The translations under genes and the position numbers were made by a program. Under the pieces are notes generated by a model, which saw nothing but the letters and a program-made list of their open reading frames with translations, did not search any database and had not been told where the DNA came from. This document shows positions 6,235 to 21,325 of a DNA stretch of 64,000 bases, in pieces. Every line of letters starts with the position of its first letter. The first letter of the stretch is position 1. Source of the DNA: Myxococcota bacterium (lineage in GTDB: Bacteria; Myxococcota_A; SURF-8); NCBI GenBank assembly GCA_965140415.1, contig OZ223209.1:1984001-2048000 (forward strand), in the 5' to 3' direction.

Positions 6235-6663
6235 GAAACCTCTTGATCGGGAGCCTGGCTGTCCGATTGATTCAAAGTGTTACGACATCGCGACGCTGCC
6301 GGTCGCGTACAACTCGGACATTCGCCGGATTCTGTAGCGATGCCCCAAGATACTTAATATCATTTTATCATACTTTATAGAAAGGTTTCAACGGCAATCG
6401 TTGGCTTAAAGCGGGAAAATCTGTGGAAATCGCGAGAAATCGCTCCGCCTGGCGCAGCATCGGCAAGGCAAGCCGAAACCTGCGTGCCGATTACTGCCAT
6501 TTCGACGGTGGACGTCTGGCAGTCCGGGGGAGCAATCCCCCTGTTCCGGCCAAAAGATGACAAACAAAGTCGGTGTGGAAAAAGGTTTGTACTATTTTTC
6601 ATGACCGTGCTATTTTTACCGCACATCAACTTAGTCGAGATCCATTCATGCTGGGGAGTTCAG

Positions 6664-9600
6664 ATGCCGGAAGCGACCGTTTCGATACAGGACTTTATTT
6701 CGCGTTGGAAAACCAGTGGGGCCTCCGAACGCTCCAACTACCAGCTCTTTTTATCGGAGTTGTGCAAGATCATCGGTGTGATGGGACCGGAGCCCAGCCA
6801 GCCCGATAACGAAAAGAACACCTACGTTTTCGAGAAGGCCGTCAGTCAGCACCATGCCGACGGTTCCACCTCGCAGCGTTTCATCGATCTTTACAAGCGT
6901 GGTTGCTTTGTGCTGGAAGCCAAGCAGGGCGCGGAAAAACGCGAGCATGATGAACTTGCCCTGAAATCAAAAAAGCTTAAAACCGGCCACGGTACGCGCG
7001 GCTCGCATGGCTGGGATGTCACCATGACCGCCGCCCGGCATCAGGCGGAAGGGTACGCCAAGGCGCTGCCAGTAGAGGAAGGCTGGCCGCCGTTAATTAT
7101 GGTGGCGGATGTGGGCCACGTGATCGAGGTCTTCGCGGATTTCAGCGGCACCGGTAAGGTCTACCAGCAGTTCCCGGATGCGCAGAACTTTCGCATCTAT
7201 CTGGACGATCTCCAGAAAGATGACGTTCGCGAGCGCCTGAAACTTATCTGGAGCGATCCGCATTCATTAGACCCCGCTAAGCGTAGCGCCGCCGTTACGC
7301 GCGAAGTGGCCGACCGACTGGCGAAGCTGGCGAAAAGCCTGGAAGGCAGCGAGCACGAACCCAAAGTCGTGTCCGAATTTCTCATGCGCTGCCTCTTTAC
7401 CATGTTTGCAGAGGACGTGGGTCTTTTGCCCAAGGACGCTTTTACCCGGCTTCTAGCCGAGTTGAAGGCCGAGCCGAGAAAGTTCCAGCCCATGCTTCAA
7501 TCGATGTGGGCGGATATGGATAAAGGTGGATTCTGCGGCGTGTTGCGCGATACCGTTTTGCGTTTCAATGGCGGCCTCTTTGCCGATCGCACGGCGCTGC
7601 CTTTGACCGGAGAGCAGATCGAACTTTTGGAGCACGCCGCCAAGGCGGATTGGAAAGACGTGGAGCCGCGTATCTTCGGCACCTTGCTGGAGCGCGCCTT
7701 AGATCCTAAAGAACGCCATAAACTGGGGGCGCACTTCACGCCGCGTGCCTATGTGGAGCGGCTGATCGAGCCGACACTTCTGGAGCCCTTGCGCGAGCAG
7801 TGGGAAAACGCCAAAGCCGCCGCGCTGATGGACGCCGACAAGGGCGATTTGAAATCCGCTACCGAGCGCGTCAAGACTTTCCACCGCCTGTTGTGCGACA
7901 CGAAGGTGCTGGACCCGGCCTGCGGCTCCGGCGACTTTTTGTACGTCGCGCTGGAGCACATGAAGCGGCTGGAGGGCGAGGTGCTGACCCTGATGGAGGA
8001 TTTCGGCGTGGAGTCGCGCGGGCTGGAGTTGACCGGCCTGACCGTCGATCCGCATCAGTTCCTCGGCATCGAGATCAACCCCCGCGCTACGGCGATTGCC
8101 GAGATGGTGCTGTGGATCGGTTATCTGCAATGGCATTTTCGCACCAAGGGCAATGTGAACCCGCCCGAACCGGTTTTGCGCGATTTCAAAAATATCGAGT
8201 GCCGCGACGCGCTTTTGGTGTGGGATCGCTGCGAAATCGCCACGGATAAAGACGGCAAGCCCCTTAGCCGCTGGGATGGCGAGACGATGAAGACGCACCC
8301 GGCCACCGGCGAACTGGTGCCGGATGAGACGGCCCGCGTCCCGCAACTGCAATACCTCAATCCCCGCAAGGCCGAATGGCCCCAGGCCGATTATGTCATC
8401 GGCAATCCGCCGTTTCTGGGAAAGGGCGAATTGATACGCGAGGCATTGGGGGACGGCTATGTGGAAGCACTTTGGAAAAATTATCCAGAAATGCCCCGTT
8501 CAGCGGATTTTGTACTGTACTGGTGGAATAAAGCAGCCCATTTGCTGAGAGATGGTAAGCTCAAGCGATTTGGTTTCATCACCACCAACTCAATTCACCA
8601 GACCTTTAACCGGAAAGTCCTTGATAGGCATATGACGGCGAAAGATCCGCTATCCATTCATTTCGCCATTCCCGATCATCCCTGGGTGGATAACACAGAT
8701 GGCGCTGACGTTCGAATTGCTATCACTGTAGCACGAGCTGGGGAATATTCAGGAAACGTAGCAAATATCGAGCGAGAAGTAAAAAGCGACCAAGATACCC
8801 GGATGGTACTGCTTGCAGAAAGCAAAGGAGTAATTCACAGCAATCTGCGTATTGGCGCTGATGTAGGTTCTGCTGTCGCGTTAATGGCTAACCAAAATCT
8901 CAGTTGGAATGGCATTATGACTGCGGGTCGCGGTTTCCTTGTCACGCATGAACAAGCAGAAAAGCTAGGGTTTGGAAAATCGGAGACTCTGAGCAAACGT
9001 ATTCGCCCCTTCATGAATGGACGAGATATCAATCAAACTCCAAGAGGAATGTATGTGATCGATCTTTTTGGATTAGAAATCAAAGAAGTCCAGATGCAGT
9101 GTCCTGATTTGTATCAATGGGTCTACGAAAATGTTAAGCCGGATAGAGATGTAAAAAGGGACAAGAAATTTAGAGAACGTTGGTGGGATTTTGGACGACC
9201 AAGACCTGACTTCAGGAAAGCTACAGAAACCCTTGAAAGATTCATTGCGACGGTTGAAACTTCAAAACACCGAATGTTCGTTTTCCTTTCTTCTGAAATA
9301 TTGCCAGAGCATAAACTGGTGAATATTGCTCTTGATGATGCGTTTTTTCTAGGCGTTCTATCGAGTCGAGCGCATGTATGCTGGGCGTTAGCCTCCGGTG
9401 GTCGTTTGGGGGTTGGTAACGATCCTGTTTATGTGAAATCCAGATGTCTAGACACCTTCCCCTTCCCGGATGCCACGGACGAGCAGAAGGCCCACATCCG
9501 CGACCTGGCCGAGCGCCTGGACGCCCACCGCAAGCAGCGCCAGGCCGAACACGAAAACCTGACCATGACCGGCATGTACAACGTGCTGGAAAAGCTGCGC

Positions 9601-10113
9601 AGCGGCGAGGCGTTGACCAAGAAGGAGCAGCATATTCACGAATGGGCGGCCACAACCGTGTTGAAGGAGTTGCACGACGAGTTGGACGCCGCCGTTTTCG
9701 ACGCCTACGGCTGGCCCGCCGACCTGGACGACGAGGACATCCTGGAGCGGTTGGTGGCGCTCAACCATGAACGCGCCGACGAGGAAAAGCGGGGGGTGAT
9801 CCGCTGGCTCAGGCCCGACTACCAGAACCCGGACGGCCACAGCGCCGCCACGCAGACCGAAGCCGAACTTGCCGAACGCACCCCGGCCAAGGCCAAAGCC
9901 GCCGCCATGAAAAAACGCCCCTGGCCCAAAGCCCTGCCCGAGCAGGTGCAGGCCGTGCGCGAGGTGCTGGCCGAACTCCCGGAAGCGGCCGACGAGGCGA
10001 CCATCGCCAAAGCCTTTAAAGGCGCACGCAAGGACAAGCTTTCCGAAATCCTGGCGACATTGGAAGTTATGGGTGGGGCCAAGCGGACGGATGAGGGTTT
10101 GTGGAGTTGCTGA
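6664..10113 (+). CDS. MmeI-like type IIL restriction-modification enzyme (fused endonuclease, adenine methyltransferase and TRD)
   Basis: IDLYKRGCFVLEAK nuclease motif, LGAHFTP, LDPACGSG (motif I), GNPPF (motif IV), HxxLDxAVxxAYGW tail. Start moved to ATG 6664 after a GGGGAG RBS. Confidence 0.9.
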   Translation: MPEATVSIQDFISRWKTSGASERSNYQLFLSELCKIIGVMGPEPSQPDNEKNTYVFEKAVSQHHADGSTSQRFIDLYKRGCFVLEAKQGAEKREHDELALKSKKLKTGHGTRGSHGWDVTMTAARHQAEGYAKALPVEEGWPPLIMVADVGHVIEVFADFSGTGKVYQQFPDAQNFRIYLDDLQKDDVRERLKLIWSDPHSLDPAKRSAAVTREVADRLAKLAKSLEGSEHEPKVVSEFLMRCLFTMFAEDVGLLPKDAFTRLLAELKAEPRKFQPMLQSMWADMDKGGFCGVLRDTVLRFNGGLFADRTALPLTGEQIELLEHAAKADWKDVEPRIFGTLLERALDPKERHKLGAHFTPRAYVERLIEPTLLEPLREQWENAKAAALMDADKGDLKSATERVKTFHRLLCDTKVLDPACGSGDFLYVALEHMKRLEGEVLTLMEDFGVESRGLELTGLTVDPHQFLGIEINPRATAIAEMVLWIGYLQWHFRTKGNVNPPEPVLRDFKNIECRDALLVWDRCEIATDKDGKPLSRWDGETMKTHPATGELVPDETARVPQLQYLNPRKAEWPQADYVIGNPPFLGKGELIREALGDGYVEALWKNYPEMPRSADFVLYWWNKAAHLLRDGKLKRFGFITTNSIHQTFNRKVLDRHMTAKDPLSIHFAIPDHPWVDNTDGADVRIAITVARAGEYSGNVANIEREVKSDQDTRMVLLAESKGVIHSNLRIGADVGSAVALMANQNLSWNGIMTAGRGFLVTHEQAEKLGFGKSETLSKRIRPFMNGRDINQTPRGMYVIDLFGLEIKEVQMQCPDLYQWVYENVKPDRDVKRDKKFRERWWDFGRPRPDFRKATETLERFIATVETSKHRMFVFLSSEILPEHKLVNIALDDAFFLGVLSSRAHVCWALASGGRLGVGNDPVYVKSRCLDTFPFPDATDEQKAHIRDLAERLDAHRKQRQAEHENLTMTGMYNVLEKLRSGEALTKKEQHIHEWAATTVLKELHDELDAAVFDAYGWPADLDDEDILERLVALNHERADEEKRGVIRWLRPDYQNPDGHSAATQTEAELAERTPAKAKAAAMKKRPWPKALPEQVQAVREVLAELPEAADEATIAKAFKGARKDKLSEILATLEVMGGAKRTDEGLWSC

Positions 10114-12992: not shown

Positions 12993-13020
12993 TTGACATG
13001 AAATCTAACAGGAATATAAT
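12993..13020 (+). promoter_or_regulatory. Consensus sigma70 promoter upstream of the Cys-rich gene cluster
   Basis: TTGACA (12993-12998), 16-nt spacer, TATAAT (13015-13020), AT-rich upstream region. Confidence 0.8.
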
Positions 13021-13142
13021 CAAGTATCGGATCTTTTGTAGGTTCGCCACGGGCCTGCCGAAGTAAATCATGTGGAGATCATTACGAAAAGCCCTCGTGT
13101 GTCTCTGGTTTTTTATGTTGAGGGACGGAAGGAAGAGTTGTG

Positions 13143-14234
13143 ATGCGAATGGCGAATTACGGATGGTGCAAGTATGGCATGATGCTGGCCTTGTTGCTCG
13201 TTGCCTCTCTGGCGATGCTGCAATGTGATGATTCCGGATCCACGGGTGTTGATGGCGACGACACCACTTCTCAATGTGTTTCGCATCAGGATTGCCCCAT
13301 CGGTTTCTCCTGTAATATAACCAGTGGCGTTTGCGGTCAGGATCCTTACGCGGTGCTGTGCACCTCGGATGTCGATTGCAACGTCGATTATACCTGCTAC
13401 ATTTCAGCGGATTCGCTGGATGGCACCGGCAAATGCGTTCCGATTACCGTTGTTGACGGCGATCCGAATATCGGCGATGGCGATACCAGCACGGGATGCA
13501 CGACGGATGACCAGTGCGAAGCCACCGAGTTCTGCTATCAGGGAACCTGCCAGGACAAGAACCCCACCTGCACCGGCAATGCCGATTGCTGGCCGGGTCA
13601 GTATTGTGATCCCACCGATGGCATCTGCAAGGGTGAGATTGTGATTGATGGTGACAAAGACACGGTCGATGGCGATCCGGATGCGGTGATCGATGGCGAT
13701 GATGACAACGTCGTAGACGGCGATCCTGACACGGTTGACGGTGATGAGGATGAACCGGTCGATGGTGACATTCCGGTCGGTCAGCCCTGCGATCGCACCA
13801 GCGACTGCCCCGTTGGCTCTGTCTGCGGCCCCTCGGGTGTCTGCATCGAGCATTGTCAGACTTCCGGTTGCACGGCTCCGGCCCACTGCAACCCCAACAA
13901 TGGCTACTGCGAATACTGTGATCAGACCTGCGCTGCCAGCCAGTGCTGCAACTACAACGTGGACTTCTGGTACTGCGGCGGCTGCTGTGTACCTCCCTGC
14001 TCCGCGGGTAACGCCTGCCAGGCGGGAACCTGCATTCCGTTGCAGTGCCCCACCTGCTCGCCGGGTGAATACTGCGATGGCGCCAACACCGGTTACATCT
14101 GCGTGGACGATCCCACTCAGGACACCGGCGAAGGCGAGCGCGGCAACGTAAGCTGCCTGCCGGCCAACTCCGCCTGCATCGAAGGCGTGGACATCTGTTG
14201 CAGTGGCACCTGCCTGATGGGCACCTGCCTGTAA
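13143..14234 (+). CDS. Secreted Cys-rich protein (probable lipoprotein) with DGD linkers and a C-terminal knottin-like module
   Basis: Signal ending in MLQC; C-x4-D/E-C repeats; VDGD repeats; CCNYxxDFWYCG module; terminal C-C-CC-C-C. Confidence 0.85.
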   Translation: MRMANYGWCKYGMMLALLLVASLAMLQCDDSGSTGVDGDDTTSQCVSHQDCPIGFSCNITSGVCGQDPYAVLCTSDVDCNVDYTCYISADSLDGTGKCVPITVVDGDPNIGDGDTSTGCTTDDQCEATEFCYQGTCQDKNPTCTGNADCWPGQYCDPTDGICKGEIVIDGDKDTVDGDPDAVIDGDDDNVVDGDPDTVDGDEDEPVDGDIPVGQPCDRTSDCPVGSVCGPSGVCIEHCQTSGCTAPAHCNPNNGYCEYCDQTCAASQCCNYNVDFWYCGGCCVPPCSAGNACQAGTCIPLQCPTCSPGEYCDGANTGYICVDDPTQDTGEGERGNVSCLPANSACIEGVDICCSGTCLMGTCL

Positions 14235-14257
14235 TCGCACACAGCGCATAAACATGC

Positions 14258-14294
14258 AAAACCGGCGAGTCTTTTCGGCTCGTCGGTTTTTTTT
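14258..14294 (+). terminator. Rho-independent terminator
   Basis: ACCGGCGAGTC / GGCTCGTCGGT stem followed by a long T run. Confidence 0.85.
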
Positions 14295-14401
14295 GTTGAA
14301 CCGATTGTATGTAAGCTGTTACACTTCTTTCATCTGCAACAAGTACAACACATTCGCATCGATATCGAATCCTTGGTAGCGCTGTAGGAAAGGAGCGAAA
14401 G

Positions 14402-15751
14402 ATGGGCCATTTCAAAGGTATTGCATGGCGTTTGGCCGCTTTGCTGATTTCTGGAATTGTCGTAATCGGCTGTTACGATCAGACCTCTTTGACCTTTGGA
14501 GCAGGTGATGAGGATACGGCACCGGGCGGCTGCCGGACCGATCTCGATTGCCCGGAAGGATACTCCTGCGATGCCGATGGGCAATGCGTGCAAGATCCTT
14601 ATGCCAACGGATGCAGCGAAGACAGTGATTGTGTGAGTGGATACGAATGTGTTATCGATCCGAAAACAGGGGAGGGTATCTGTCGCCTGCTGGTTGATGG
14701 CGATGTGGAACCGGAATGCGTGAAAGACGAAGATTGCAGTACGGGGATGATTTGCGTACAGGGAGAATGCCGGATCAAGCGAGATTGCGAGCGCGATGCA
14801 GACTGTCCCCCCAATTTCCGATGTAACCAGCAGACTTGGCAGTGCGAAGAGGTTATTGGTCCTGTCGATGGGGATTTCGATGCGGACCTGGAGCTGGAAC
14901 TGGAACAGGAAGAAGATGCGTTCCCACTGACCTGTCAAGGCACGGCTAATTGTCCGGTTGGATATGTGTGCAGCTTGGATGGAATCTGCATTCCAAGCTG
15001 CGAGCAGACCGGTTGCTTGTATGGCATCTGCAATGTCGAAAGCGGTTTGTGTGAATACTGCGATCCGCCTTGCCCGGATACCCAGTGTTGTAATTACGCA
15101 TTCGACTTTTGGTACTGTGGAACATGTTGCCGACCGCCCTGTCCTCCAAATCAAGTTTGTCAAGCGGGTGACTGTATCAGTGTCGAATGCCCACCTTGTC
15201 CGCCGGGGCAAATATGCGGAGCTGAAACCGGCTTTATCTGCATGGATATCATCCAACCGGATGGCGACGTCGAACAGGATGCGGACCCGGACCTTATACC
15301 ATCGTTCTGCCGGTCTACTGAGGATTGTCCACGCGGGTATGTTTGCAACGAGCAGGGCAAGTGCGAACCTTCTTGCATCCTGACCGGCTGTGAATTCGGC
15401 ACCTGTAATACGAACACCGGAGAATGCGAATTCTGCGATCCGCCTTGTCCGGATGGAAGGTGCTGTAATTACAACATGGATTTCTGGTATTGTGGAAGCT
15501 GTTGCAATCCTCCCTGCGAAGACGGCATGGCTTGTCAGGGAGGAGCCTGCATTCCCCTGCAATGTCCGCGTTGTCCGCCCTGGCAGCAGTGTGGACCGGA
15601 AACCGGGTATGTTTGCGAGGATATCTGGACCGATGGCGATGTGATCTGGGGAAAACAAGGCAAAACAACGTGTTTGCCGGCAAATTCCTCCTGCATCGAA
15701 GGCGTGGATTTTTGTTGCAGCGGCACCTGTCTGATGGGCACCTGCCTGTAA
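14402..15751 (+). CDS. Cys-rich lipoprotein, paralogue of 13143-14234, with two CCNYxxDFWYCG modules
   Basis: Lipobox VIGC; QDPYA motif and C-terminal 26 aa shared with the upstream gene. Confidence 0.85.
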   Translation: MGHFKGIAWRLAALLISGIVVIGCYDQTSLTFGAGDEDTAPGGCRTDLDCPEGYSCDADGQCVQDPYANGCSEDSDCVSGYECVIDPKTGEGICRLLVDGDVEPECVKDEDCSTGMICVQGECRIKRDCERDADCPPNFRCNQQTWQCEEVIGPVDGDFDADLELELEQEEDAFPLTCQGTANCPVGYVCSLDGICIPSCEQTGCLYGICNVESGLCEYCDPPCPDTQCCNYAFDFWYCGTCCRPPCPPNQVCQAGDCISVECPPCPPGQICGAETGFICMDIIQPDGDVEQDADPDLIPSFCRSTEDCPRGYVCNEQGKCEPSCILTGCEFGTCNTNTGECEFCDPPCPDGRCCNYNMDFWYCGSCCNPPCEDGMACQGGACIPLQCPRCPPWQQCGPETGYVCEDIWTDGDVIWGKQGKTTCLPANSSCIEGVDFCCSGTCLMGTCL

Positions 15752-16099: not shown

Positions 16100-17911
16100 A
16101 TGTTCAAATCGAGGTGGATAACTGCTGGTTGTATTTTCATATTGTTGTTCATAGCGGGTTGCAATGGCAACGACACGAACATGATTTTCACCGATGGCGA
16201 CGAGCAGATTCCCGCAGACGGCGACGGGGATTTGGATGTGCCGGAAAACGAAATCGACCAGGAAGTCATTCCTTGTGAAGAAGGCGAGCTACTCTGCGAA
16301 GATGACAGCACCCTGCTGGTATGCAATGCCGAGGGAATCTGGGTATTGAAGAAGGTTTGTGAGAACGGCGAAAGCTGCATCGATGGTAGTTGCCAATCTC
16401 CGCTACCCGACGGCGACAATCTCCTGCCGGATGGCGATGACCCACAGCCCGATGGCGATGACCCACAGCCCGATGGCGATGACCCTCAGCCCGACGGCGA
16501 CGATCCTCAGCCCGACGGCGACGATCCACTGCCGGATGGCGATCAGGTCGTTCATTGTGTGGAACATACGGACTGTGCCTATGGTATGGCTTGCAATCCT
16601 ACCGGTGCCGGTGATGGCTGCGAAATGCGCATGGCGTGCAACGAAGATGCCGATTGCGAGAATCCGCGCCTGATGTGTGCTGAAATGGAAAACTGGAAGG
16701 AATGTGCACCCACACCGGATGAATGCATGGAAGATGACGAATGCGAGTTCGGCTTTGCCTGTCAAGAGGGAGAAGACGGCTATAACGATTGCGTAGACAC
16801 CAACGAGTGCGCATTGTCTACCGACTGTGACGAGAATATGGTGTGCGTCCAAACGGATACGCGCTGGGTGTGTCAACCGGATGGCCAGGCTTGTACCGAG
16901 CATAGCGACTGTGAATTCGGCTACGAATGTCACACCGAGTTCGAGCAGCCGATCTGTTTGTATGCCAGCGAGTGTACCGTCGATGCGGATTGCCCTTCCT
17001 ATCAGCGTTGCCAGGTGGAAGAAAACTGGAAAGCCTGCAAGATCGATTTCAATGCGTTCTGTCAAAGCGATGCCGATTGCGAGTTCGGCGAAACCTGCGA
17101 CATTCTATTTTCCAATTACGGTTCCTGCAAATCCATGAACATCTGTACTTCCGATCGCGAATGTCCGACCGGTTTCGAATGCGAAAGTAACGGAACCTAC
17201 ATGGATTGCGTTGAAGTTGCCCCCTGCGTAACCGATGCCGATTGCGGTTTCGGATTCCGTTGCGTAGCTCAGCAGCCGAAAAACCTTTGTGAATACGCCA
17301 ACCAGTGCAGTTCCGATGCCGATTGCGGCTATATGCAGGAATGCGCCGTCAGCGGCAATTGGACGAGTTGTACCACGCATTTCCCGGATGTGTGCACCGG
17401 CGATGATAGTTGCGCCGAGGATGAATACTGCGACACGCTACTGGGACCACTGGGCGAGTGCCGCTCGAAGAGCCAGTGCTTCGTCGATGAGGATTGTGGC
17501 GAAGGGATGGCTTGCGAGAGCAACGGTACCTTCAATGAGTGCGTGGCTGCCGACCCGGATGCCTGCTGGTTTGATTTCCAGTGCCAGGAAGACTGGCTCT
17601 GCCTGGACAATACCTGCAAGCCTCAATATGAAGGAATGTGTACGGATATCGAGGGCTTGTGGACGGTCTGGATTTCCGACTGCACCTTGATCATGACCGG
17701 CCAGACCTATGAATTCGTTCCGAAAGACGGATGCAACGGGGACATTCGCCTGGGTGATACGCAAGTTCCGGCTGGTTCTTTCGATGAAACGTCTACCAGT
17801 CATTACGATCTGACGATTGCTCTTGTGTTGCAATGTACTTCCGAAGTGACGCTGAACACCGTGATGTCGGTTGATTGCGGTAGTTGCACTGTGCAGTTAG
17901 GTCGGCTGTAA
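16100..17911 (+). CDS. Cys-rich repeat lipoprotein with a PDGDDPQ tandem repeat
   Basis: Lipobox IAGC; more than ten C-x4-[DE]-C-x4-C repeats; beta-rich C-terminus. Confidence 0.85.
   Translation: MFKSRWITAGCIFILLFIAGCNGNDTNMIFTDGDEQIPADGDGDLDVPENEIDQEVIPCEEGELLCEDDSTLLVCNAEGIWVLKKVCENGESCIDGSCQSPLPDGDNLLPDGDDPQPDGDDPQPDGDDPQPDGDDPQPDGDDPLPDGDQVVHCVEHTDCAYGMACNPTGAGDGCEMRMACNEDADCENPRLMCAEMENWKECAPTPDECMEDDECEFGFACQEGEDGYNDCVDTNECALSTDCDENMVCVQTDTRWVCQPDGQACTEHSDCEFGYECHTEFEQPICLYASECTVDADCPSYQRCQVEENWKACKIDFNAFCQSDADCEFGETCDILFSNYGSCKSMNICTSDRECPTGFECESNGTYMDCVEVAPCVTDADCGFGFRCVAQQPKNLCEYANQCSSDADCGYMQECAVSGNWTSCTTHFPDVCTGDDSCAEDEYCDTLLGPLGECRSKSQCFVDEDCGEGMACESNGTFNECVAADPDACWFDFQCQEDWLCLDNTCKPQYEGMCTDIEGLWTVWISDCTLIMTGQTYEFVPKDGCNGDIRLGDTQVPAGSFDETSTSHYDLTIALVLQCTSEVTLNTVMSVDCGSCTVQLGRL
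16406..16545 (+). repeat. 21-bp coding tandem repeat, about 7 units (PDGDDPQ)
   Basis: Variants of cccgatggcgatgacccacag repeated in frame. Confidence 0.9.
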
Positions 17912-18080: not shown

Positions 18081-19331
18081 ATGACACGGAAATTCCAGAA
18101 CTGGATAGGTCTTTTGCTGGCTATGTTGCTGATCGTCACCGGGGTTGTGTTGGCCTGCTCCAGCCTCGATTCGGGTGCATCGTCGGTTACGATTGGGCAT
18201 AGTTGTACCAATCTTGCAGATTGTTCCTACGGAGAGGAATGCGTAACCTATGGTGTTCGTTGCGACGATGCCGGGGAAAATTGCGAAGGCGCCTCGCTTT
18301 GCGTACCTCAATTCTGTGTAACCCATGCCGATTGCATCAATACCGACGAAATGAAATGCTGCAAGGGCCAGTGTGCCGACCGTGAAGCCTTTTGCGATGG
18401 TCCCTGCCAGGATAACAGCGATTGCGAAGAAGGGCTCTGTGTGGCGGGCGTTTGTACGAACATTCCGGGCGTTACCGGCGGCAGTTGTACAACCATCGAC
18501 GATTGCCCGGAAAATACGGTCTGCGTGGCCGGGCTGTGCATTGCCAATCCCGGTATCGATGGCGGCCAGTGCGACGATGATTCGGATTGCGAATCGGGAA
18601 ACTGCACGATGGGTTTCTGTACGCAGAGTGAAGGCCAGGATGGTCGTTGCGAAACGGCTGCGGATTGTACGGAAGAGGGTGCGGTCTGCGTGTTGGGACT
18701 GTGCATCGGTGGGAATTCTTCCATCGAATGTCAGAGCGATGAAGATTGTTTGCCGGGACAGAGTTGTGAAAATGGAACCTGCGAAGGCGATGTCGTGCTG
18801 ACCTGTGAAGTAAATGACGACTGCCCCAGTGGTTTTTACTGCGCCAGCGGCTTGTGTCGCCCGGAAATCACCGATTCTTGCATCCTGGATGAAGATTGCC
18901 AGGAAGGTCTGGTCTGCACGGAAGGGCAGTGTTTGCCTGAAGGTGTGGAGCTATGTGAAGATGATAGCGATTGCAGTAACGGTGCAACCTGCATTGCCGG
19001 TTTCTGCTTGGGCGGCGACAATCCCAGCGACGGTCGCTGCGAAGACGATTACGACTGTCCCGAGGGTGAAAGCTGTCTGATGACCTTCTGCGTGGAAGAC
19101 GGTCAGACTCCCGATACCTGCGAAGACGACTGGGATTGCCTGGGCGGAGAGCGCTGCATTCTTGGCGTTTGCATCGGCACGCCCCAGCCGGGTGGTCCCT
19201 GCCAGACCAACGATGACTGCTACAACGGCATCTGCCTGTTCGGTCAATGTTGGGGTTCCGGTCCGCAAACCTGTGAATCCGACTACGATTGTCCCACTGG
19301 ACAGGAATGCATTCTGCAAACCTGTATCTAG
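18081..19331 (+). CDS. Cys-rich repeat lipoprotein
   Basis: Lipobox VLAC; almost entirely C-x4-DC-x3-5-C-x2-G-x-C repeats. Confidence 0.85.
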   Translation: MTRKFQNWIGLLLAMLLIVTGVVLACSSLDSGASSVTIGHSCTNLADCSYGEECVTYGVRCDDAGENCEGASLCVPQFCVTHADCINTDEMKCCKGQCADREAFCDGPCQDNSDCEEGLCVAGVCTNIPGVTGGSCTTIDDCPENTVCVAGLCIANPGIDGGQCDDDSDCESGNCTMGFCTQSEGQDGRCETAADCTEEGAVCVLGLCIGGNSSIECQSDEDCLPGQSCENGTCEGDVVLTCEVNDDCPSGFYCASGLCRPEITDSCILDEDCQEGLVCTEGQCLPEGVELCEDDSDCSNGATCIAGFCLGGDNPSDGRCEDDYDCPEGESCLMTFCVEDGQTPDTCEDDWDCLGGERCILGVCIGTPQPGGPCQTNDDCYNGICLFGQCWGSGPQTCESDYDCPTGQECILQTCI

Positions 19332-19735: not shown

Positions 19736-21325
19736 TCAGGGAAACCGGATGCAGATTGTTTTTCGATCAAACGCTAACCAGACACTTCGATCTCCTCGCC
19801 ACACCCGGGCCTTCGTAATATAATTTACCGACACTTTATATTCCCATCCTTCATCGCAACCTAAGCCTACCCAACTATTAAATATAAAAGACTCTGTTTC
19901 CATATTCGCTGAGCTAAGGGATTCCAGAAAATAAAACCTCATATGGAGTAAACACATTTCTGGCCACCAAAGGCTCTCTATTACAATATCAATTGTCATC
20001 AATGGCCAGCCGCCCATACCGAAAGTCGTAACCAATCTGTCATCGTTTTCGGATTCAGGCACTGGCAGCAAATCGTGATAGGACGTGGTTTCTCCACTAA
20101 TCGGGTTATAGTGGATTTGATCTTTCAGCGCCCGATAATCGAGGCCGCTGTCATCCGGAAAATGCCTGGAGATCCACAGACCGTTTTCATCGACGCCGAT
20201 CAGGCGCGAAAGATCTTCTCCGAAATCGGTTCCAAAGTCGCGAATCGAGGTGCAATCGGTAGCTTCGGGTGTCAAAGCATAGAGCCGGTTGCCACCCATT
20301 AGGTAATAGGTTTCTCCGAACCAGTAACCAACTTCGTTGAACTGCGCCAGCATGTCCTCGCAGGGCGGGACGCGGTTCCAAGCTTGTGTAGTGGTGAAAA
20401 AGAAATGAGTGGAATCGTATTCCCGACCAGTTTCATAGACGCCAGTATTGGAAGCGTAAGCAACGTTCAGGGCAACGACCGCGCCTTGCACCTTCAGGCT
20501 GTAGGGATGTTTCACTTCTTCAACGCCTTCTGAATCGATGGCTGTTTCGTTCTGCACGAGATCAGCGGGTAGATCGAAAAAGCTCCATTCGCCTTGAACC
20601 AGGCGTCCGAGCCGGGTCGCCGTCGCGATCCAGATTTCCACCTGGCCTTCCAGCAAGCGACCATCCAAAGAAAAGACTTCCTCATTCACCCGTTCGTCGC
20701 AGCGCAGTTCGTTACTGGCTTCATCGTATTCCCAGAAACGATTGCCTGCAAACCAGGTTTTACCTGCATCATTTGACCAGACATCCAGAGCGTTGAAAGC
20801 TCCGCCACCCTCACAGCGAACGACGGTGGTATCTTCAAAAGGAAAGGTGTCCATACTCAGGTTCAGGGCTTCGATATCCGGTTCCTGGTCCATCTCGGAG
20901 GCACTATCCGATTCGGTTTCCACATCCGGTTCGAGCTCGATATTGTCCACATTGTCCGGGTCGGCGTCGAGTTCCAAGGTGTCTCCGTCCGTTTCCGGTG
21001 TTTCGTTATCGAGATCATGATCGCCATCCGCATCGGAATCGCCATCTGTATCTGTATCGCCGTCCGAATCCGGATCGGCGTCCCGGTCTCCATCCACCGG
21101 TGTTTCATCCAGATCGGCGGGGGGAGGATCACTATCGGGAAGGTCGGCGTCCAAATCTCCATCGGAAGAATTCTCACGATCAACGAGTTCCGTATCCTGG
21201 TCGGCGGGCGGCAGGTCGCCATCCGTCGAGGAACCGTCGTCCGAGCAGGCAGGCAACAGCAGTAAGCAGACAAGCAGGAACCACACAATCCCAACGCACT
21301 GCTTCTTGTGGAGAATGGGTGACAT
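19736..21325 (-). CDS. Lipoprotein with a long DGD/acidic linker and beta-rich C-terminal region
   Basis: Lipobox LPAC-SDD; CAGGAGG RBS; about 125-aa Asp-rich linker. Confidence 0.8.
   Translation of the reverse strand: MSPILHKKQCVGIVWFLLVCLLLLPACSDDGSSTDGDLPPADQDTELVDRENSSDGDLDADLPDSDPPPADLDETPVDGDRDADPDSDGDTDTDGDSDADGDHDLDNETPETDGDTLELDADPDNVDNIELEPDVETESDSASEMDQEPDIEALNLSMDTFPFEDTTVVRCEGGGAFNALDVWSNDAGKTWFAGNRFWEYDEASNELRCDERVNEEVFSLDGRLLEGQVEIWIATATRLGRLVQGEWSFFDLPADLVQNETAIDSEGVEEVKHPYSLKVQGAVVALNVAYASNTGVYETGREYDSTHFFFTTTQAWNRVPPCEDMLAQFNEVGYWFGETYYLMGGNRLYALTPEATDCTSIRDFGTDFGEDLSRLIGVDENGLWISRHFPDDSGLDYRALKDQIHYNPISGETTSYHDLLPVPESENDDRLVTTFGMGGWPLMTIDIVIESLWWPEMCLLHMRFYFLESLSSANMETESFIFNSWVGLGCDEGWEYKVSVNYITKARVWRGDRSVWLAFDRKTICIRFP

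Follow-up and report, generated by a model that had tools for sequence, protein, structure and literature searches.

Can a bacterium end its lipoproteins with an inhibitor cystine knot, and what would such a knot be for? This question is raised by two tandem cysteine-rich genes, open reading frames (ORFs) A and B, which lie on the + strand of a 64,000-nt window of contig OZ223209.1 (Myxococcota bacterium, assembly GCA_965140415.1) and each of which carries at its C terminus a 26-aa module with six Cys (Table 1). All coordinates are positions within this window, i.e., the whole stretch of DNA that was analysed, unless they are prefixed G000:C1. From the spacing of the Cys residues, the initial annotation of the window took the module for a bacterial knottin, either displayed on a stalk, released as a toxin or inhibitor, or used as a docking or sorting tag. 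Our analysis indicates that the module, as modelled, probably adopts the inhibitor-cystine-knot (ICK, or knottin) fold and that it belongs to a rare family specific to one Myxococcota order. As to its role, we lean tentatively, at a little short of an even chance, towards a tethered knob that docks with a conserved partner and away from a fast-evolving toxin.

Both genes do end in the 26-mers that had been described, the ends given for them having included the stop codons, and the short linkers said to precede them are likewise found in the translations (Table 1). The modules share the spacing C-x6-C-x6-CC-x3-C-x4-C, with a single hydrophobic residue (Leu or Met) between the last Cys and the stop. 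They are identical at 24/26 positions against 58/103 in the preceding Cys-rich domain, in agreement with the proposal that the module is better conserved than the rest of the two proteins. The DNA of the two modules differs by 8 synonymous and 2 non-synonymous changes, with proportions by the Nei-Gojobori method of 0.44 at synonymous sites (pS) and 0.033 at non-synonymous sites (pN), which argues that the peptide is under purifying selection. The synonymous differences also rule out a recent gene conversion as the source of the identity. When the six frames of the 5.98-Mb, 52% GC genome were scanned by regular expression, the exact spacing occurred at 3 places only, each one residue before a stop, the third (G000:C1:4717923-4718003) being the end of a 447-aa paralogue.

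The same contrast between module and neighbouring domain extends to the whole family. Among 30 sequences, mean pairwise identity reaches 74% in the module against 49% in the adjacent domain of 22 Cys (hereafter the 22-Cys domain), and 66% against 36% once the Cys columns are left out. All six Cys of the module are invariant in 30/30 sequences, and its length is 26 residues in 35/36 distinct tails, the remaining one having a 7-residue loop 2. Across 28 modules, the elements C, G, CCSG, C, G, and C are invariant, with G18, S24, G25, and G30 as the non-Cys positions, L9 and M29 are conserved in at least 90%, and the stretches CLPAN and CLMGTCL are mostly kept. The C terminus is always C-[L/M]-stop (33 Leu and 3 Met in the 36 tails). 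The resulting surface is nearly invariant, hydrophobic and acidic, and contains zero basic residues (CLPAN..., CCSGTCLMGTCL). Venom knottins keep their cysteines while their loops vary; the evolution of the module, with frozen loops on a tether, is thus the opposite of theirs.

The search of this genome and of metagenomes with a module profile, which had been suggested together with the knottin proposal, uncovered a rare family with 3 copies in this genome. Against 1.84 billion representative proteins, the profile gave 21 matches at E ≤ 1e-3, of which 20 reach the last residue of the protein and are counted as true members; a chance or low-complexity Cys pattern is ruled out by so few matches and by the three genomic sites. 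The 21st, P0028 (metagenome, 342 aa), is an unrelated protein with tandem Cys-rich repeats and the sole match located away from the C terminus; we observed that it is built of tandem C-x6-C-x5-CC-SGNC units resembling a string of knottins. All 10 species-level genomes of the uncultured Myxococcota order to which the window belongs carry the module, in 1 to 4 copies each. Outside the order, an even sample of the phylum (401 genomes, including the 10 of the order) yielded a match in 1/391 genomes only, weak (E 5.9e-4) and inside a long open frame. A pattern scan of 185,579 species genomes yielded 8 loci, all labelled Myxococcota or Myxococcales bacterium. The module is thus specific to a single order. 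Neither Pfam nor NCBIfam holds a family for it, and no bacterial Cys-rich repeat already described in these two databases, including TIGR04201 Myxo_Cys_RPT and PF23416 DUF7107, matched any of 28 isolated modules, an outcome that leaves the proposal standing on this point. ORFs A and B do have sub-threshold matches to DUF7107, Dickkopf_N, and Myxo_Cys_RPT, in their N-terminal parts only. A search for shorter homologues gave no complete stand-alone short form, only the fragment P0011, which retains part of the 22-Cys domain, and a search for longer homologues (787-2245 aa) gave zero candidates.

Several lines, each modest, bear on the fold of the module. AlphaFold2 (AF2), given an alignment of 28 module sequences, models it with a predicted local distance difference test (pLDDT) of 91-92, and a second model of the last 150 aa of ORF A keeps it at about 90, with the linker at 63-77. 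The order C-C-CC-C-C of the Cys residues falls within the about 25-40 residues that are typical of knottins, and the backbone of the AF2 model resembles that of solved knottins. The comparison with ICK folds, also suggested at the outset, placed omega-conotoxin MVIIA (1omg) in the top row of a Foldseek search of the PDB; the match extends over 25 columns of this 25-residue chain, with a root-mean-square deviation (rmsd) of 1.6 Å. Delta-conotoxin TxVIA (1fu3) has an rmsd of 1.1 Å over 26 residues, and the 15 Foldseek rows contain only toxins of cone snails, spiders, and sea anemones, the spinach trypsin inhibitor, and an engineered disulfide-rich peptide, i.e., small disulfide-rich toxins or inhibitors throughout. 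The sequence-profile matches in the PDB are solely bidentatide (E 0.013), kappa-conotoxin PVIIA, mu-agatoxin, and tarantula toxins. In Pfam, the Conotoxin family is matched weakly by 28/28 modules and Toxin_35 by 10/28.

Against the knottin fold, it has to be said that these matches are individually weak: the best Foldseek E-value is 2.1, so nothing is significant there, the profile matches in the PDB go no lower than E 0.013, and the first member reaches 17.6 bits (best E 0.0016) against a gathering threshold of 25.1 for PF02950 Conotoxin, the 150-aa tails scoring 13.8-15.2 bits. In addition, DSSP assigns isolated bridges only to the AF2 model, the I-IV, II-V, and III-VI connectivity is proposed solely from superpositions of the model on knottin chains at 1.0-1.6 Å, and AF2 may be echoing a Cys pattern learned from toxins. 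The weak scores are in part what is to be expected, because 26 residues cannot score highly, and the fold lines, taken together, agree on a knottin-like model. The part of the initial claim that concerned the fold is therefore consistent with the AF2, Foldseek, PDB profile, and Pfam results, every score being weak or below threshold when taken singly.

In no case was the module seen alone. In 36/36 distinct tails of the family, it is preceded by the 22-Cys domain, of about 105 aa, to which it is joined by an acidic linker of variable length, and what is portable is therefore a cassette of about 140 aa. Its carriers range from 320 to 3713 aa and bear lipoprotein-type signals: the cassette terminates proteins of 320-530 aa, one protein of 1458 aa, and one leucine-rich repeat (LRR) protein of 3713 aa. 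The latter (L028 494-11635, from the relative G006) combines a lipoprotein-type leader, about nine near-identical Cys-rich repeats, two LRR blocks (LRR_4, E 2.6e-55), and the terminal cassette. The 1458-aa protein of the same relative (L029) also has a lipoprotein-type leader, with matches to Disintegrin and Dicty_CTDC, and its knot is the one with the 7-residue loop 2. ORF B and P0018 have two copies of the 22-Cys domain and a single terminal knot.

The 22-Cys domain itself is modelled by AF2 with a pLDDT of 94-97; it has no fold match in the PDB and no family in Pfam, and, as modelled, it may be a new disulfide-rich fold. Its Cys55 and Cys68 are replaced together in 7/30 sequences and never singly, a joint loss that provides covariation evidence for one disulfide, out of a predicted total of 11 in the domain. 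A lead from the ESM Atlas towards Stig1 (scores 0.82-0.84, lead level 0.9) was rejected, since ten 150-aa tails compared with Pfam at E ≤ 10 gave zero Stig1 matches. We also observed that the hairpin C..SDCP.G.VCGP.G.C that opens the domain (13782-13856) can be superposed at 0.5-0.8 Å on EETI-II, a trypsin inhibitor from squash, to which it is 44-48% identical over 23-25 residues, which suggests that the ordinary repeats of the family are themselves knottin-like fragments.

The sequences are also consistent with a disulfide-forming setting. A hydrophobic leader ending in Cys is recognised by regular expression in 27/33 distinct members, the other six being 5 fragments and P0013, whose leader is visible by eye. 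Of these 27 members, 26 have an even number of Cys after the lipobox Cys, as does the mature chain of ORF A (44 Cys after Cys29), which fits a lipidated first Cys followed by Cys residues that are all paired in disulfides. We found six DsbA-family domains in the genome, with three in tandem in one 658-aa frame (G000:C1:2245907-2247601), and a VKOR-DsbA fusion in a 404-aa frame (G000:C1:4501179-4502303); neither DsbB nor DsbC_N was matched in the genome, which is 94% complete. For a proteome with many multi-disulfide lipoproteins, such a set of disulfide-forming proteins is unusual.

What, then, does the knot do? The near-invariant loops favour a docking knob over an arms-race toxin, and a hydrophobic and acidic surface that is frozen to this extent suggests a single macromolecule, itself conserved, as its partner. 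According to this tentative scheme, a lipid-anchored, stalk-like protein would hold the knot at its far end, tethered by the flexible acidic linker, and the invariant surface would plug into one partner conserved in the lineage, for which an envelope receptor, a component of sorting or export, or a like protein on a neighbouring cell are candidates. Such a docking handle would explain why the same tail is found on quite different protein bodies. Several points weigh against this scheme. The docking partner is hypothetical, and the sole pointer to surface exposure is the lipoprotein-type signal. In the 10 regions compared, no gene was found to accompany the family consistently, the neighbours common to these regions reflecting plain synteny between two close genomes only, so that genomic context is uninformative on function. 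In some places the 22-Cys domain is followed by other sequence, and in one it closes a frame without a knot, which means that the cassette is not obligatory for this domain; at three loci (L037-L039), the domain is matched and the regular expression for the module motif is not. Lastly, the basic residue that lies upstream of the knot in most tails fits release by cleavage at least equally well.

Such release is the main rival to docking. It would make the large protein a pro-peptide, which a protease would cut at the basic residue of the linker to free a knottin of about 30 aa, which would act at a distance, poisoning prey or competitors or serving as a signal; many Myxococcota are predators. 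A Lys or Arg at positions -8 to -1 is found in 28/36 distinct tails, where about 26% would be expected from a K/R content of 3.6%, with a peak of these residues at -5 to -3, after an acidic one. The linker, moreover, is flexible by prediction, and the Pfam Conotoxin alignments start a few positions ahead of the mature toxin in the Pfam profile. We nevertheless consider it rather unlikely, since the 8 other tails, including the LRR-protein forms, lack such a residue, the loops hardly vary across the order, unlike those of arms-race toxins, and the peptide is acidic, hydrophobic, and devoid of basic residues, unlike most antimicrobial peptides. Moreover, no small stand-alone precursor was found, and no protease or exporter gene is conserved nearby in the 10 regions. 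Somewhat less probable still is a tethered enzyme inhibitor, in which the knot, through its invariant loop 1 (LPAN) or its free C-terminal C-L, would block a conserved enzyme as plant knottins block proteases, carboxypeptidases, or amylases; one candidate target is a secreted hydrolase of the producer, whose own envelope would thereby be protected. No above-threshold sequence match links the module to any inhibitor family, no hydrolase gene is conserved beside the family, and a single residue follows the last Cys, where the potato carboxypeptidase inhibitor uses a longer tail. As the neighbour lists are dominated by ion-channel toxins, the fold alone is no pointer to inhibition. We give an equally low probability to the view that the module is not a cystine knot at all, its Cys being paired otherwise or with those of the 22-Cys domain, and that it is the last repeat of the stalk, a structural cap without binding. 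The variable-length linker, of low confidence in the model, that parts the module from the 22-Cys domain and the spacing of 26 residues fixed in 35/36 tails both argue against such a view, as does the conservation of the module, which exceeds that of every other part of the protein and would not be expected of a generic stalk repeat. Furthermore, according to a 2025 preprint, AF2 predicted no knottins when bacterial proteomes were tested and has no tendency to call them falsely (10.1101/2025.05.13.653811).

Among known systems, the module most resembles the framework VI/VII conotoxins and the plant knottins of CCSG type. With the O-superfamily conotoxins of framework VI/VII (MVIIA, TxVIA, EVIA 1g1z, and PVIIA; PF02950), it shares the C-C-CC-C-C framework, small residues after the CC pair, and a backbone that superposes at 1.1-1.6 Å over 25-27 residues. 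Conotoxins are made from small signal-pro-toxin precursors. Unlike them, the module does not come from a small precursor (75 positions in the PF02950 model); it forms the last 26 aa of bacterial proteins of 320-3713 aa with lipoprotein-type signals, its loops are near-invariant instead of hypervariable, and the peptide is acidic, hydrophobic, and free of basic residues. Because the match is short and dominated by Cys, common descent with conotoxins is not demonstrable. The plant knottin bidentatide (8hjc/8hjd) is 46% identical to the module over 26 residues, with an rmsd of 1.1 Å and a common CCSG.C motif; SOTI-III (4aoq), gurmarin (1c4e), Ep-AMP1 from a cactus (2mfs), and the amaranth alpha-amylase inhibitor (1clv) were the other plant knottins compared. 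Plant knottins are free secreted mini-proteins, unlike the module, which is a tethered terminal domain, and a function is not transferable from the plant peptides.

Within the bacteria, the precedent for a shared C-terminal handle is MYXO-CTERM, a sorting tag of Myxococcota surface proteins, which comprises a transmembrane helix and an Arg-rich end. The module differs from it by its six Cys, by the lack of a hydrophobic helix and of an Arg tail, and by the one residue that follows the last Cys. The likeness resides in a conserved Cys element at the extreme C terminus of myxobacterial proteins with Cys-rich stalks, e.g., TraA, MYXO-CTERM being described in the abstract of the corresponding paper as a short motif in which further parts come after a single invariant Cys (PMC11980579). 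Tags of the MYXO-CTERM, PEP-CTERM, or type IX secretion system (T9SS) kind were accordingly rejected, their anatomy being different from a 26-aa element without helix or basic tail and neither NCBIfam nor Pfam giving a match. A precursor of a ribosomally synthesized and post-translationally modified peptide (RiPP), of a lanthipeptide, or of the SCIFF/ranthipeptide type was also rejected, as the neighbours are not conserved in the 10 regions and the module sits on large proteins that have lipoprotein-type signals.

Knottins are prized as scaffolds for drugs and imaging, and the usual view takes them to be essentially eukaryotic and viral. With a conserved bacterial family in which the knot is confidently predicted, knottin folding in bacteria becomes directly testable; if the prediction is true, the module offers a knot made naturally in a bacterial envelope, and the 22-Cys domain adds a confidently modelled fold without a match in the PDB. 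A broader reading would join these elements, and in its entirety we rate it as improbable, on a par with cleavage release: the family would be the first from bacteria in which true knots are well supported, and a system of VKOR-DsbA type would fold them in the periplasm without an endoplasmic reticulum (ER). It would have originated within the Cys-rich lipoproteins of a single order, separately from the knottins of animals and plants. The invariant knot and the 22-Cys domain would serve as a handle for sorting, surface anchoring, or cell-to-cell docking, or else the knot would be cut off at the conserved basic site as a bacterial "conotoxin". Bacterial knottin sequences do exist according to the paper on the KNOTTIN database, as theoretical models with no experimental structure, and our family was compared with them through this description only (PMC5753296). 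The 2025 preprint finds the bacterial literature, like the proteomes it scanned, devoid of knottins and suggests that an ER-like feature may be needed for knottin folding (10.1101/2025.05.13.653811). A published description of the module family was not found in the literature, supplementary lists of bacterial knottins lying outside the search, and the word "knottin" was absent among the matches listed for myxobacteria.

Table 1. Positions of the features of ORF A and ORF B and of their flanking signals in the window
Feature	Position	Strand	Remarks
Promoter-like site, 5' of ORF A	12993..13020	+	TTGACA, 16 nt, TATAAT; sigma-70-like, 12/12 consensus positions; pattern match only
ORF A	13140..14234	+	364 aa, 12.6% Cys, lipoprotein-type signal
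ORF A signal peptide	13140..13226	+	lipobox-like end ...LAMLQC (Cys29); read from translation
ORF A 22-Cys domain	13788..14102	+	CCNYN..FWYCG.CC.PPC signature
ORF A acidic linker	14103..14153	+	last residues GERGNVS; pLDDT 63-77; length variable across family
ORF A 26-aa six-Cys knottin-like module	14154..14231	+	stop codon 14232-14234
Terminator-like hairpin, 3' of ORF A	14258..14290	+	14 pairs then T-run; pattern match only
ORF B	14402..15751	+	449 aa, 14.9% Cys, lipoprotein-type signal
ORF B signal peptide	14402..14473	+	lipobox end ...VVIGC (Cys24)
ORF B 22-Cys domain, copy 1	14933..15241 (G000:C1:1998933-1999241)	+	E 1.3e-28; no knot after it
ORF B 22-Cys domain, copy 2	15308..15616 (G000:C1:1999308-1999616)	+	E 6.1e-29
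ORF B linker	15617..15670	+	last residues GKQGKTT
ORF B 26-aa six-Cys knottin-like module	15671..15748	+	stop codon 15749-15751

Directly downstream of ORF B, two further Cys-rich genes with lipoprotein-type leaders (16100-17911 and 18081-19331) extend the pair to a run of four. The former contains several tandem PDGDD(P/Q) units, and the latter 8 DUF7107 repeats (E 3.9e-27) together with matches to EB and Dickkopf_N. The run is followed on the opposite strand by a gene for an acidic 529-aa protein (19736-21325). On the other side of ORF A, a 1209-aa ORF (6484-10113) with an NPPF motif (…VIGNPPFLGKG…) resembles, as read from its translation, a fused restriction-modification enzyme of type IIG-like organisation.

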